Below, piece by piece: positions 3,413-26,930 of a stretch of 64,000 nucleotides of DNA; the stretch's first letter is position 1; each line of letters begins with the position of its first letter. Position numbers and translations under genes: made by a program. The stretch comes from Escherichia phage WPEC5, in the sequence record PV654397.1. One strand, given 5' to 3'. The notes under the pieces are model-generated. The model was not told the origin of the DNA. It saw nothing but the letters and a program-made list of their open reading frames with translations, and did not search any database.

Positions 3413-3442
3413 TATATCATGTATGGGACGAATGTCCCACAC
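3413..3442 (-). promoter_or_regulatory. sigma70-like promoter (GGGACA-N16-TG-n-TATAAT) overlapping a GGGAC/GTCCC hairpin
   Basis: Minus-strand reading ...TGGGACATTCGTCCCATACATGATATAAT...; same architecture recurs near 8.8, 12.3 and 26.9 kb. Confidence 0.35.
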
Positions 3443-3446
3443 ATTA

Positions 3447-4886
3447 TTACATATTTTCTTCAGCAAATTCTGCCAGTGGTGAACGAACGACACCTTCTAG
3501 TTCGATTACACGACAACCGTCCCAGTTCTTGAACTTCTCGGTAACATAAGTTAGACCGCTGTTTACTGGACTAATGAACTTAGAGTCAATCTGACTCAAG
3601 TTACCCATAATAACCACTTTACAGTTCATTCCTGCACGAGTCAAGATTGTTTTTGCCTGAGCAGGTGTGATGTTCTGGAATTCATCAACTACTAGGATAG
3701 TATTTGTGAAAGAACGACCACGAACGAAGTTTAGTGCTTTGAACTGGATAACATTGCGTTTCATGATTTCTTCGATACTGCCTTGTGGGTTAGCATCATC
3801 TTTGTGTAGGAATTCCAACGCATCAATTGCTGCACCACAGAAAGGAATCACTTTCTCTGCTTCAGATCCTGGTAAGAAACCAATGTCTTCGAATTGGGAA
3901 TCTTGTGTTTTGGAGAAGATGATACGGTCGTATTTTTTCTTCTCTAGTACTAGCTCTAGTGCAGTTGCAATAGTGATTAGTGTTTTACCAGTACCTGCTG
4001 AACCTAACAGTACTGTTAGATGAACATCAGGATCTAAAATACTGTTGATTGCTAGTGCTTGCTGAATATTCTTAGCCTTGATATCCCACACTTTAGCACG
4101 TAAAGCAACTGATTGTCCAACGTCCTGGAATACAAGAATATCTTCTGGTGTTAACGTACCATCGTCTTCTTCAATTGCAGATTGACCTTCGTACACAAAT
4201 AGAACATCAGCATTATCATATAGGTAATCACCGATGCAAACATTTTGTGGCATGATATGATCAATCAAGCTTTTAGGAATGTAGTGATACAAACGGCGAC
4301 CAACTTGTTCAGATTGGATAGACACATCAGTTAGATTGCTATACACATCCCAAAAATCTAGGTCTAGGTGATGTTGACCAATGTGAATCAAATCACTATC
4401 ACCAATCACGATATCATGACGGTAATCTTGAACTTCTACCCCGTAGCTTAGAGCCTTGATACGCATGTTGATATCACGGGTAACCAGTACTGAATCAGTT
4501 GCTAATGCTACTAAAATGATTTTATCATCTGGTACTGTGCTTTTTAGAAGAGTTTGAACTTTCTCTTCGTTACCAGCAGTACGAATTAGTGCTTCAGCTT
4601 CTTCGCTTGTAATAACAAACAATTTGCTTTCAGGACTCATATTAGTATGAACATCAGCAATATTAACACCAGTACTACTAATTTCTTCATGTGATGCATC
4701 AGAAAGGATTGCTTCAATGTTACGGATTGCAACACGAGCATCACGGGAAACATCCACATTACGACTTTTGATTGAATCCAATTCTTCAAGTACTGTGAAC
4801 GGTAGAATGATAGCTGCTCCATCAAAAGCAATGGTAGCATTTGGATCAGATAGTAGTACGTTTGTGTCAATTGTATATTTTTTCAT
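3447..4886 (-). CDS. phoH: PhoH-like ATPase with N-terminal PIN domain (PhoH2-type)
   Basis: N-terminal MKKYTIDTNVLLSDP (PIN-like); Walker A LLGSAGTGKT; length 479 aa typical of PIN-PhoH fusions. Confidence 0.8.
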   Translation of the reverse strand: MKKYTIDTNVLLSDPNATIAFDGAAIILPFTVLEELDSIKSRNVDVSRDARVAIRNIEAILSDASHEEISSTGVNIADVHTNMSPESKLFVITSEEAEALIRTAGNEEKVQTLLKSTVPDDKIILVALATDSVLVTRDINMRIKALSYGVEVQDYRHDIVIGDSDLIHIGQHHLDLDFWDVYSNLTDVSIQSEQVGRRLYHYIPKSLIDHIMPQNVCIGDYLYDNADVLFVYEGQSAIEEDDGTLTPEDILVFQDVGQSVALRAKVWDIKAKNIQQALAINSILDPDVHLTVLLGSAGTGKTLITIATALELVLEKKKYDRIIFSKTQDSQFEDIGFLPGSEAEKVIPFCGAAIDALEFLHKDDANPQGSIEEIMKRNVIQFKALNFVRGRSFTNTILVVDEFQNITPAQAKTILTRAGMNCKVVIMGNLSQIDSKFISPVNSGLTYVTEKFKNWDGCRVIELEGVVRSPLAEFAEENM

Positions 4887-4947
4887 AAAACATCCTTGAG
4901 TTATGAGTACATCCTTGTACTCGACTAATGGTTAGTGACTCGGAATA

Positions 4948-5250
4948 TTACATGCTCGGTTCGTATTCAACATAACATCTTGAACCACGAGCCTTTTCCT
5001 CCCAGCATTCTTGGTAAACTAGTTGACCAATTGATACTGGATCTCTTGATAACCCATTACGAACTTCACCAGTACTGGTTTTATAAGTAAATGAGCATTT
5101 ATTTTCATTACATTGACCTAATCCTATTACAGTCGCTGTATTGTAATGAATATTATAACGTTTAGTGTTCTCATGATATGAACTGAACCACAGAACACCT
5201 ATACCTAATAGCGTTGTGCAAATAAGACTCTTAATATGTGTTGAAATCAT
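4948..5250 (-). CDS. hypothetical membrane-anchored or secreted protein (100 aa)
   Basis: Hydrophobic N-terminal segment LICTTLLGIGVLWF; several Cys. Confidence 0.5.
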   Translation of the reverse strand: MISTHIKSLICTTLLGIGVLWFSSYHENTKRYNIHYNTATVIGLGQCNENKCSFTYKTSTGEVRNGLSRDPVSIGQLVYQECWEEKARGSRCYVEYEPSM

Positions 5251-5567
5251 AGTGCATTAAACCCATTAGTTAAGTAAGTTTCAATATTAACTTTCCCTAC
5301 TGGATTACTACTATGTACATAGTATTTAAATGGTTCTTTAATATTATGCTCAAACATATAATCAATTAGAAATTTGGCAAAAGTGTATCCCGTTTTCTCA
5401 TCTGTACTCAAGTCGCCCAAGTCATGGTCAAATGAGACAAATGCTGGAATTCCATTTTTGATTACGTATTCACATGCACTTTCGTAGTCACGACACAATA
5501 CCATCTCTTGGTCAGGATAATATTTTTGATAATCACGAATATCATCCAAGAACATTGAGTACGACAT
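5247..5567 (-). CDS. hypothetical protein (106 aa)
   Basis: ORF track; stop/start overlap; no confident motif. Confidence 0.55.
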   Translation of the reverse strand: MSYSMFLDDIRDYQKYYPDQEMVLCRDYESACEYVIKNGIPAFVSFDHDLGDLSTDEKTGYTFAKFLIDYMFEHNIKEPFKYYVHSSNPVGKVNIETYLTNGFNAL

Positions 5568-5576
5568 TTTAAACTC

Positions 5577-6128
5577 CTATAGATAGCTGATTAGTAAGTT
5601 TTCTTTTTGTACAAGATACTCTAATTCTTGTTTCGCAGTTCCGATGAAGTTCTGTGTCATAAGATTATTATATCCTGCTTCTCGATTTTGTCCCTTCGAA
5701 TAACGAGAGATGTGACATAAATTTACACCAGCCACCTCTGCACTAGCATGTTTGCCATATGCATAATTATCACGAAGTTTTTTAAGTTCAGCATAAGTCA
5801 TTTCATAACTATAGCTATGTGAGTGACCCTCTGGAAACAATTCAAGTGATTTTAATGGAGACAGGCGACTTTTGTCAATGATATAGTTCATTTCTTCTTG
5901 TACTTCACGTTGTAACGCATCTTCTAATGACTTATCAGTACTTTCAACTGTTCCACCACATGCACCCAACAATCCATCCCAACGCACTTGTAGGAGTACT
6001 AAGTTAACCACTGGGATATCATTTAGTTCATAACCAGAGTATGGGGTACATTCTTTTGCATAAAAGAAACAGAATACAAAATTTGCACGTTTCCCCAGTT
6101 GTCCCAGTGGTACTTCAGCTTTACTCAT
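5577..6128 (-). CDS. hypothetical protein with weak Nudix-like signature
   Basis: REVQEE resembles the RE-U-x-EE core of the Nudix box but upstream G-x5-E spacing is not canonical; assignment tentative. Confidence 0.5.
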   Translation of the reverse strand: MSKAEVPLGQLGKRANFVFCFFYAKECTPYSGYELNDIPVVNLVLLQVRWDGLLGACGGTVESTDKSLEDALQREVQEEMNYIIDKSRLSPLKSLELFPEGHSHSYSYEMTYAELKKLRDNYAYGKHASAEVAGVNLCHISRYSKGQNREAGYNNLMTQNFIGTAKQELEYLVQKENLLISYL

Positions 6129-25790: not shown

Positions 25791-25802
25791 CTTTGTACCT
25801 GC

Positions 25803-25826
25803 GAAAAAAGACCAGCAAACGCTGGC
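25803..25826 (-). terminator. rho-independent terminator
   Basis: CCAGC-AAAC-GCTGG hairpin followed by U-run, downstream of 25835..26116. Confidence 0.5.
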
Positions 25827-25834
25827 CTAAAAAT

Positions 25835-26116
25835 TTAAATTATTTCATATAGACAATATACACCATCAACGCCATCACAAGGAAAATCAACATAGAAATT
25901 CACACTAACAGTATCATAATCAATCTCAGTGATGCGTCCGGTTTTACCTACACTCTTCACGAATAGGTCAGAGCCAAGATATACAAACTCAAACTCATCT
26001 GCATACTCTTTTATAATATCAGCAAAATCACAACCATATCTGGGATCAGTATTAATAATCTCAAGATATAATGTAATGTATTGTTCGTATGACCATGTGT
26101 GTAGGTAAAAATCCAT
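25835..26116 (-). CDS. hypothetical protein (93 aa)
   Basis: ORF track. Confidence 0.5.
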   Translation of the reverse strand: MDFYLHTWSYEQYITLYLEIINTDPRYGCDFADIIKEYADEFEFVYLGSDLFVKSVGKTGRITEIDYDTVSVNFYVDFPCDGVDGVYCLYEII

Positions 26117-26125
26117 AACAGTTCC

Positions 26126-26863
26126 TTAGAAATATACCATACCCATCAATTCTGAATCTTCAGGGCGAGTATAGCCTTGTTTCTTAACTTTAAAGTAGAA
26201 GGATTCATTGTCTTCTAAATTATAACGTTTCTTCAAGCAACGGGTATATGTCTGGCAATTAGGATGAACCCATTCATATATATGAACACCATCTTCATTA
26301 TAACCATTTATACTACAACGGTTGCCTTCATGTTTCTTGTAGTTCTTGCTTTTCTCGGTAAATTCTTTTACAGCAGTAGTACTTGGTGATTTATATTCAA
26401 AAGGAACTTCAGTCATACGGAAATAATAATATTGATCGTCTTCATCATATCCCAAGAGCACTGTGTTAGTTTCACGTACATTGTAATGATTCTTACTTTT
26501 CAATTCATTTTCATATATATCTTGAAGTACTTCTGCAAATACTGTAGTACTGTCAGCATTTGGGTTGGATACACCTGATACTCTTCGTTCAATAATAAAA
26601 TCAGTATATTTGCGGTCTTCTGCAATGTCTTCATTCATATAAAGACTAACGAACTTATCCTTGTACGTCTTTACACTGTATTGTTTACTTTGAACTTCGC
26701 TATATACATCTGCTAACATATTCTCCTGACCGCACTGCACACCACTTACAGAATAAGCACATGCATGTTCAGCCATCACTGATGTTAACATTTGAAAATT
26801 TGCCATGTTTAATTCATTCGCCATCTCTGTAGCGAAACGGATACGGTCAAGCACTTTCCACAC
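26126..26863 (-). CDS. hypothetical protein (245 aa)
   Basis: ORF track. Confidence 0.6.
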   Translation of the reverse strand: MWKVLDRIRFATEMANELNMANFQMLTSVMAEHACAYSVSGVQCGQENMLADVYSEVQSKQYSVKTYKDKFVSLYMNEDIAEDRKYTDFIIERRVSGVSNPNADSTTVFAEVLQDIYENELKSKNHYNVRETNTVLLGYDEDDQYYYFRMTEVPFEYKSPSTTAVKEFTEKSKNYKKHEGNRCSINGYNEDGVHIYEWVHPNCQTYTRCLKKRYNLEDNESFYFKVKKQGYTRPEDSELMGMVYF

Positions 26864-26895
26864 TCCTTGTGTTAGTTATTGTTCCTTATCCATTA

Positions 26896-26930
26896 TTATA
26901 TCACTACTTGAGCTATCGTCCCGCTTTGTA
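26896..26930 (-). promoter_or_regulatory. promoter-like element (GGGACG-N16-GTGATATAAT)
   Basis: Minus-strand reading GCGGGACGATAGCTCAAGTAGTGATATAAT upstream of 26126..26863. Confidence 0.3.

Follow-up and report, generated by a model that had tools for sequence, protein, structure and literature searches.

What kind of promoter serves the genes on the minus strand of Escherichia phage WPEC5, and what reads it? The question arises from a 64,000-nucleotide stretch of this phage (PV654397.1; "the window" refers to the whole stretch), in which a sequence-only reading had pointed out at least four intergenic minus-strand sites with a -35-like hexamer (TAGACA or GGGACA), a 16-nt spacer, and an extended -10 element (TGnTATAAT). 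These were regarded as a family of phage early or middle promoters read by host sigma70. Megablast analysis of the window reveals 97-98% coverage and 98-99% identity to the Asteriusvirus jumbo coliphages Ecwhy_1, fEgEco12, and CMSTMSU, and ~83-84% identity to the 121Q/PBECO4/Sharanji lineage. An initial assignment to a Gram-positive, SPO1-like phage, prompted by a GC content of 34% and genes confined to one strand, was discarded on the strength of this match. Genome-wide counts were made on fEgEco12, the closest well-annotated genome, which was assembled from eight pieces into 353,740 unique bases. Its record begins and finishes with a 21-kb direct repeat, and its plus strand, at about 29-93 kb counted from the left end, corresponds to the minus strand of the window, which carries every convincing open reading frame (ORF).

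All four sites are present on the minus strand where they had been placed (Table 1). The hexamers of sites 1-3 are those described, while site 4 reads GGGACG. The fixed 16-nt spacing and the extended -10 element are borne out by a search for RGACR-N13-TGNTATAAT, whose eight matches in the window (0.01 expected from 100 shuffles) are confined to the minus strand, an enrichment of ~800-fold. Relaxing the box to RRACR gives nine matches versus 0.10 expected, the ninth being the site at 23591, and all nine possess TGnTATAAT. With two variant sites (23591, which differs in the box, and 17758, with a spacer of 17) the total is ten, and "at least four" was thus an understatement; fewer than half of the family had been noticed. 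Of the 13 copies of the nonamer TGATATAAT in the window (3.2 expected), 12 are on the minus strand. A scan of the window with the generic sigma70 consensus revealed no enrichment (97 vs 87+/-10 and 103 vs 109+/-10), indicating that the signal lies in this specific architecture and not in promoter-likeness generally.

Table 1. Putative promoters and a terminator hairpin in the window. Sites 1-4 are those of the sequence-only reading; the other six class-B entries were added here. Classes A and B are defined in the text.
Feature	Position	Strand	Sequence elements	Context	Sharanji counterpart
Class-B promoter, site 1	3411..3439	-	box TGGGACA (3433-3439), 13-nt spacer, TGATATAAT (3411-3419); hexamer form GGGACA-16-TATAAT (3411-3438), TATAAT preceded by caTGA	within 66-nt gap after PhoH-like gene; end 30 nt from ATG of 62-aa ORF (3192-3380)	kept, spacer 1 nt longer
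Class-B promoter, site 2	8797..8825	-	ATAGACA-N13-TGATATAAT; hexamer form TAGACA-16-TATAAT (8797-8824), TATAAT preceded by gtgTGA	282-nt intergenic gap, ~135 nt ahead of ClpP-like protease ORF (8053-8661)	
Class-B promoter, site 3	12324..12352	-	GTAGACA-N13-TGATATAAT; hexamer form TAGACA-16-TATAAT (12324-12351)	end 34 nt from ATG of ClpP-like gene (11594-12289)	upstream DNA non-homologous, yet TTGGACA exactly 13 nt ahead of TG
Possible class-B variant (weak)	17758..17787	-	TGGGACA-N14-TGATATAAT, spacer 17		
Class-B promoter	19981..20009	-	TGAGACA-N13-TGATATAAT	end 31 nt from GTG of ORF 19620-19949	TGAGACG, spacer diverged
Class-B variant	23591..23619	-	TGGAACA-N13-TGCTATAAT; box like TGGAACG of phage CBB		present
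Class-B promoter, site 4	26895..26923	-	CGGGACG-N13-TGATATAAT; hexamer form 26895-26922	end 31 nt from GTG of ORF 26126-26863; box overlaps upstream ORF's end	AGGGACA, nonamer identical, spacer 8/13 identical
Intrinsic-terminator hairpin	32950..32981	-	12-bp stem + U7, dG -17.6, z -5.8	begins 4 nt past -10 of 32984 promoter	
Class-B promoter	32984..33012	-	TGAGACA-N13-TGATATAAT	directly behind stop of ORF 33010-33858; no ORF downstream	
Class-B promoter	34687..34715	-	GTGGACA-N13-TGATATAAT	end 33 nt from ATG of ORF 34267-34653	GTGAACA
Class-B promoter	36448..36476	-	TTGGACG-N13-TGATATAAT	first class-B site read from the genome's left end	fully conserved
Class-A promoter	47684..47713	-	TTGACA-18-TATAAT with TGA	upstream of ORF 47171-47650	
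Class-A promoter	59249..59277	-	TTGACA-17-TACAAT	74-nt gap, end 27 nt from ORF 58646-59221	

The same architecture, here designated class B, recurs throughout fEgEco12. It is characterized by a box (t-G-R-G-A-C-R), exactly 13 nt, and TGn-TATAAT, which equates to a hexamer spacer of 16 nt and an obligatory extended -10 element. For RGACR-N13-TGNTATAAT there are 22 plus-strand matches and no minus-strand ones, where a first-order Markov null predicts 0.07, and all copies are co-directional with the genes; allowing RRACR raises the count to 24. The spacing is rigid: RGACR-N16-TATAAT is found at 26 plus-strand sites, while spacers of 14, 15, 17, and 18 nt yield 0, 0, 3, and 1. By comparison, the TTGAC sites of this genome with a perfect TATAAT are spread over spacers of 16, 17, and 18 nt (24, 17, and 8 sites, respectively). 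Canonical sigma70 promoters carry T at the first two hexamer positions and a spacer of 16-18 nt, optimally 17; in class B the second position is G, never T. The TG at -15/-14 in front of the -10 hexamer is that of sigma70 extended -10 promoters. Positions conserved without having been imposed by site selection are T at -20, G at -19, and the G ahead of TG, and A or C stands between TG and TATAAT in 24/24 sites; the remainder of the spacer region has no information content. Among 27 sites of a relaxed set 24 lie outside long ORFs, and 13 end 28-40 nt ahead of a start codon with a Shine-Dalgarno sequence.

Comparison with the more distant phage Sharanji provides a measure of constraint. Eight of the nine window sites tested could be aligned, and all of these retain the nonamer TGATATAAT without change (72/72 bases). 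Substitutions in the box are exclusively purine for purine (GTGGACA to GTGAACA, TGAGACA to TGAGACG, and CGGGACG to AGGGACA), with AC constant, and the intergenic spacers are only ~60-75% identical. Conserved halves and a drifting spacer are the pattern expected of two recognized elements held at a fixed distance. A few sites weigh against this picture. Site 2 is without a counterpart in Sharanji, where the region is rearranged; the 23591 variant lies inside the 3' end of a T4 Rnl1-like RNA ligase gene (23393-24535), and the 17758 variant inside a Ser/Thr phosphatase ORF (17499-18257). The latter is identical in Sharanji, which, this being coding DNA, is of little weight.

Could the motif instead be a site of protein binding or recombination that is present in several copies, or the relic of duplicated intergenic cassettes? 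The support for class B is drawn from sequence, and further DNA words under strong selection (AGTACT, for instance) exist in the genome, both of which would suit such an explanation. The flanks and spacers are nevertheless unrelated between copies, which argues against duplicated cassettes; the sites display perfect promoter grammar, an orientation fixed to the genes and, at about half of them, a short distance to a Shine-Dalgarno sequence and start codon, and orthologous positions are kept across genera. We consider a non-promoter role very improbable. The view that these are phage promoters has held up, the family being strand-consistent, almost entirely intergenic, located in about half of the cases 28-40 nt from a start codon, and conserved in Sharanji; the class-B sites are, in our estimation, very probably real promoters as judged by their pattern and conservation.

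When in infection would they be used? A second class (class A) is TTGACA-like, has a spacer of 16-18 nt, and is often accompanied by an A-rich element further upstream. In fEgEco12 this class fills both the small-ORF region at 262-330 kb and the terminal repeat (0-21 kb). The TTGACA-N17-TACAAT promoter previously proposed at 59249-59277 is present, likewise on the minus strand, and falls into this canonical early-type class; its counterpart is at fEgEco12 33612. Class B commences at 56 kb (window 36456) and recurs at 56-90, 110-142, 190-256, and 285-318 kb. None was found at 0-56 kb, save one TG-less match at position 281, nor on the strand of the tail-fiber, baseplate, or 330-349 kb structural blocks. 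The genes downstream include gp32 (with two tandem promoters), primase, a recB-like exonuclease, topoisomerase II, and the gp55-like sigma factor g336. The window straddles this transition. From 64,000 down to ~37,000, nearer the left end of fEgEco12, it contains small ORFs of unknown function; in the other half, the Pfam families of the proteins indicate T4-like early/middle functions, namely PhoH, two ClpP-like proteases, PNKP, an Rnl1-type RNA ligase, DNA ligase, Dam, dCMP deaminase, Sir2, Nudix, and metallophosphatases. The class-B promoters of the window stand before ClpP-like proteases and small ORFs among the PNKP, RNA ligase, DNA ligase, dCMP deaminase, and PhoH genes.

A third, putatively late class is represented by the T4-type late word TATAAATA, which is avoided in fEgEco12 (9 vs 52 expected, both strands together). 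The copies inspected lie upstream of the prohead gene g349, the major capsid gene, and two baseplate genes (e.g., 203480 and 204689 on the plus strand, 184939 and 190984 on the minus strand), often as tttCAGTAC-TATAAATA. T4-type late promoters have TATAAATA at -10 and no -35 element; class-B sites carry TATAAT.

A comparable set of three classes was predicted by MEME in phage CBB (Buttimer et al. 2017, PMC5259590). It comprises RpoD-like promoters with UP elements in a region of short early ORFs; "divergent RpoD-like" promoters ("Promoter 1") with a classic -10 element and TGAAACG replacing TTGACA; and T4-like ATAAATA late promoters (PMC5259590). The divergent class precedes DNA-synthesis genes and a gp55-like gene, and was also reported for phage GAP32 (PMC5259590, which credits Abbasifar et al. 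2014 as well). Table S6 of that paper lists TGAAACG/TGGAACG-N13-TG(G/C/A)TATAAT, one entry having TATAGT (PMC5259590). From its architecture, class B appears to be the Asteriusvirus version of the CBB/GAP32 class, itself a computer prediction; what is new here is the membership of Asteriusvirus, the class having already been predicted by computer in sister genera. We regard it as likely that class B is a distinct, non-early (middle-type) class homologous to these divergent promoters. Where the sequence-only reading had left "early or middle" open, the middle (delayed-early) alternative is favored and the early one is not.

The matter of what reads the box was approached by comparing the 50-kb replication modules of phages RaK2, Munch, and BF with fEgEco12. 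In Asteriusvirus (fEgEco12) the box is TG(A/G)GACA, followed by N13 (24 sites vs 2 at N14) and TGA or TGC; in Munch it is TGGGACA, N14 (8 vs 1 at N13), and TGA or TGC; in BF, as in CBB, TGAAAC(G/A), N13 (7 vs 0 at N14), and mostly TGG. RaK2 has few sites, with TGAAC(A/G), N13 or N14, and TGA. The orthologous promoters of the recB-like exonuclease illustrate this well, since TGCTATAAT and the leader are conserved in fEgEco12, Munch, and BF and the box reads TGAGACA, TGAGACA moved by one base, and TGAAACA, respectively. The sigma70 region 4 of the hosts, all of them enterobacteria, is presumably much the same. A shared host reader would pull all genera towards TTGACA and a 17-nt spacer, so a box and spacing specific to the genus point to a phage-encoded determinant, as does the coexistence with true TTGACA promoters.

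A candidate is at hand. Every class-B genome sampled (Asteriusvirus, RaK2, CBB/GAP32, the Munch relative SE_PL, and BF) encodes a homologue of an RpoD-like sigma factor; a 2026 review goes no further than to call it "likely" that such phage sigmas direct phage-specific promoters. In fEgEco12 this is g519 (322 aa; 306,080-307,048), in which Pfam finds Sigma70 regions 2 and 3; its best PDB matches are SigB, SigA, RpoS, and RpoD (E ~1e-17), with an alignment running through region 4. Some 70 full-length matches to the protein were listed; it is 59% identical to that of 121Q-type phages and 33-39% identical to those of the other genera. Given that the DNA of the window is ~84% identical between the fEgEco12 and 121Q lineages, the sigma gene is evolving unusually fast. 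All homologues possess an eight-residue insertion directly before the recognition helix of region 4.2. Two class-A promoters (304484 and 304805) lie upstream of the gene. Of other potential regulators, the annotated "transcriptional regulators" g185, g307, and g390, as well as g336, gave no Pfam matches; g276, a "putative sigma 54", was rejected on the grounds that Pfam identifies it as a ribosome hibernation factor, while g030 was assigned to the DksA-type zinc fingers.

In E. coli sigma70, residue R584 contacts the C:G pair of TTGACA. Alignment of the phage sigma factors with E. coli RpoD places R or K at this position, in agreement with the invariant AC of the box. The R588 equivalent is H in phages with GGGAC/GAGAC and S in those with GAAAC, and the E585 equivalent has been lost, in step with the lost preference for TT. 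The covariation of H/S with G/A is suggestive as a lead only: RaK2, with a TGAAC box and H at this position, breaks the simple correlation of residue and base, which in any event rests on essentially one evolutionary change. Joint evolution of the phage sigma with the box, the spacer length (16 vs 17), and the base at -13 across Rak2-like genera is a tentative proposal, and we would rather doubt it than assert it.

We surmise that class B represents delayed-early/middle promoters used by the host core RNA polymerase. TGnTATAAT would be read in the standard manner of the sigma70 family, and the upstream box by a phage specificity determinant, most parsimoniously region 4 of g519. The cascade would run from host sigma70 at class A through the phage sigma at class B to the gp55-like sigma at the TATAAATA late promoters, a sequence of events supported by the class-A promoters upstream of the sigma gene cluster. 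Taken as a whole, the proposal that these Asteriusvirus promoters form a genome-wide class apart from canonical class A, with a phage-encoded reader of the box, has about an even chance of being correct; the narrower proposal that the RpoD-like sigma is that reader, as its region 4 might suggest, falls a little short of that.

The principal competitor is that host sigma70 reads the entire promoter. Class-B sites would then be ordinary extended -10 promoters with a partial -35 (xRGACA, 4-5/6) bound by region 4, and would fire as soon as infection begins; shunning TT and keeping to a spacer of 16 nt would serve only to tune strength, for instance against over-tight promoters from which polymerase could not escape. 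Several observations favor it and in part also weigh against a phage-encoded reader. GGGACA or TAGACA together with the perfect TGnTATAAT gives 10-11 of 12 matches to the sigma70 consensus, and sigma70 holoenzyme would probably initiate at class B in vitro. Within TTGACA, the GACA portion, which class B retains, is contacted by R588 and R584 of region 4.2. E458 is the residue of sigma70 that reads TG; the phage sigmas are without E458 and W433/W434, and every genus keeps TG and TATAAT unchanged even though these sigmas share only 33-59% identity, such that an invariant host reader of the -10 half fits at least as well. The related phage PA5oct depends on host RNA polymerase, and for its mapped promoters only TTGAC/TATAATA motifs are reported from RNA-seq. 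A literature search returned no promoter analysis or transcript mapping for Asteriusvirus, and the word "promoter" is absent from the Sharanji paper.

Set against these points, a dispensable -35 element should decay, and instead the box is information-rich even where it differs from the sigma70 consensus. The CBB/BF box GAAACG matches TTGACA at only 2/6 positions and is equally conserved. Box, spacer, and TGn base are specific to the genus, and the hosts are all enterobacteria; moreover, the rigid spacing differs from that of the TTGACA class in the same genome, and classes A and B occupy different genome regions. On balance, recognition by sigma70 alone is rather unlikely. The attribution to host sigma70 was the weak part of the sequence-only reading: in view of the class's own box consensus, rigid spacer, genus-specific features, and the presence of a phage RpoD-like sigma, it is not established.

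Another means of combining an invariant -10 half with a variable box is that of T4 MotA/AsiA. Sigma70 would read TGnTATAAT and an early phage DNA-binding protein bound to tGRGACR would recruit or remodel polymerase, leaving the RpoD-like sigma to serve another promoter set. This provides the best account of an unchanging TG and -10 element with a genus-specific box and spacing. T4 middle promoters possess a rigidly spaced upstream box and a good -10 element, often with TGn, which class B parallels, and the genes served are of the T4 middle-mode kind. The MotA box ((a/t)(a/t)(a/t)TGCTTtA, centered at -30 and 12+/-1 nt from the -10 element) is, however, not found in class B, the box of which is centered near -33, the place of region 4. 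A phmmer search of fEgEco12 with a T4 AsiA query, a weak test, found no AsiA-like ORF; no MotA or AsiA family is among the 25 Pfam families (of 33) listed for the window proteins, and a comparative survey of jumbo phages makes no mention of MotA. This arrangement would also leave the phage sigma without a promoter class, only three classes having been seen. We therefore judge it quite unlikely, and retain the phage sigma as the preferred reader of the box.

The class-B positions bear on genome annotation. The 36448 promoter lies 50 nt inside the annotated start of ORF 36051-36524 (g153), and a start 28 nt downstream would give a protein of 122 aa. For the gp55-like sigma g336 (fEgEco12 190,974-191,072) the annotated start is upstream of a class-B promoter, and a start 57 nt after the -10 element would give 279 aa. 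Both annotated starts are probably wrong. The 32984 promoter, with its immediate terminator hairpin, is followed behind that terminator by ~600 nt of fairly GC-rich DNA without a convincing ORF (window 32,380-33,012, minus strand). Rfam and tRNA scans of the window revealed nothing at the gathering threshold, and this stretch gave only a chance-level match to the L20 leader (E = 0.93). Two more class-B promoters without a downstream ORF are located at fEgEco12 195696 and, just after the sigma gene, at 307085. Such stretches may be candidate small RNAs or regulated leaders. At site 1, the box forms the 5' arm of a small hairpin, GGGACattcGTCCC (3425-3438, minus strand), which in Sharanji takes the form GGGACAttaTGTCCC with a compensatory change; similar hairpins containing GGGA ahead of TGATATAAT occur at fEgEco12 226964 and 242559.

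The class-A regions are notable for repetition. The early promoters of the terminal repeat (0-21 kb) are near-identical, consisting of an A-rich element, TTGACA, N8, cAGTACTG(G), TATAAT/CATAAT, N5, and ACATCAA, and recur every few hundred bases ahead of tiny ORFs. A terminator/promoter module, aaaGGGTTGACTTCGGTCAGCCCTTTTTGC-TATAAT, in which the -35 element (TTGACT) of the next promoter lies within the 5' arm of the terminator hairpin, is repeated both at 315-327 kb (piece coordinates 15184, 18778, 19558, 21821, 26443, and 27026, where piece 6080 equals genome 306,080) and in the terminal repeat (9498, 13496, 16765, and 19517). In the window, the tandem ORFs of 110-200 aa on the minus strand at ~45,000-56,000 and 60,000-63,600 include small paralogue families (BLASTP, E below 1e-5; clusters of 6, 6, 3, 3, 2, 2, and 2 members), and at many of these ORFs the stop and start codons overlap.

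A further property of these genomes is an excess of the palindrome AGTACT, which exceeds expectation 9-11x, with 193 copies in the window (17 expected) and 977 in the genome (111 expected). The extended form cAGTACTg, CAGTACTG, occurs 41 times in the window versus 0.8 expected and 221 times in the genome versus 5. AGTACT is found in coding DNA in all three reading frames; Ser-Thr is encoded as AGT-ACT 79 times versus 21 expected, and the dipeptides Ser-Thr and Val-Leu are themselves enriched. Early promoters of the terminal repeat carry the word in their spacer, and it also lies directly upstream of late TATAAATA. The enrichment is common to Sharanji, RaK2, Munch, and BF, and no paper on it in these phages was found in a literature search. 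Two segments of fEgEco12 are free of AGTACT, 20,857-26,616 and 29,016-37,647, the second corresponding to window 55,500-64,000; the median spacing elsewhere is 244 bp, and the GC content of these segments is lower (~0.30). They may differ from the rest of the genome in origin or constraint, and the palindrome may serve as the target of a DNA-binding or packaging protein of the phage. The contrast is with extreme restriction-site avoidance: 25 of the 64 six-base palindromes are absent from the 354 kb of fEgEco12, including CCATGG (50 expected), TGGCCA (46), GCATGC (44), CTGCAG (43), and GGTACC (36), and CAGCTG occurs once versus 43 expected. The enrichment of AGTACT may merit more attention than the promoters.

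The value of the promoter analysis lies in a testable three-class map for an Asteriusvirus coliphage (early TTGACA, middle tGRGACR-N13-TGnTATAAT, and late TATAAATA) in a group of phages where ~80% of the genes have no known function and for which our literature search found no published promoter or transcript map. Class-B positions mend gene starts, as for g153 and the gp55-like sigma, and flag promoter-led stretches without ORFs, possibly small RNAs. Should the phage sigma read the box, the genus variants would be a source of orthogonal sigma/promoter pairs for E. coli, that is, natural sets operating on one enterobacterial core polymerase with a shared host-type TGnTATAAT half. The middle-gene switch would then take place by sigma replacement and not by T4-style appropriation of sigma70, and the variants would illustrate a change of -35 specificity by a phage sigma that leaves the host -10 element in place. 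Should host sigma70 be sufficient, there is nothing out of the ordinary in the finding.

How does class B compare with known systems? With the promoters of phiEco32/7-11 gp36 and SPO1 gp28 it would share the principle, described in PMC8948821, of an early phage sigma which redirects host core polymerase. Those systems are experimentally verified and their promoters are without a sigma70-type TGnTATAAT, whereas the -10 half of class B is indistinguishable from the host consensus and the class is predicted from sequence. E. coli sigma70 extended -10 promoters have the same TG at -15/-14 before a consensus TATAAT, and the GACA core of the -35 hexamer, at a 16-nt spacer, is likewise common to both. 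Classical members neither need nor conserve a -35 element, whereas class B rigidly keeps a non-consensus box which varies with the genus of the phage and not with the host. T4 middle promoters are a functional analogy, being a second temporal class for replication, recombination, nucleotide-metabolism, and late-sigma genes in which a phage-specific upstream box stands at fixed spacing from a host-type -10 element, often with TGn; they differ in their box (TGCTT at -30, in comparison to GRGAC near -33), and T4 is without an RpoD-like sigma, of which these jumbo phages carry a full one. The closest parallel is the CBB/GAP32 class. The box is TG(A/G)GACA here and TGAAACG/TGGAACG in CBB, a difference of one or two purine positions, and the n of TGn, A or C here, is mostly G in the related phage BF. 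They share the 29-nt frame, with a seven-nucleotide box (T-G-R-R-A-C-R), 13 nt, and TGnTATAAT; DNA-synthesis genes and a gp55-like sigma downstream; and membership in the same Rak2-like group (group 2.2 jumbo phages), all with an RpoD-like sigma.

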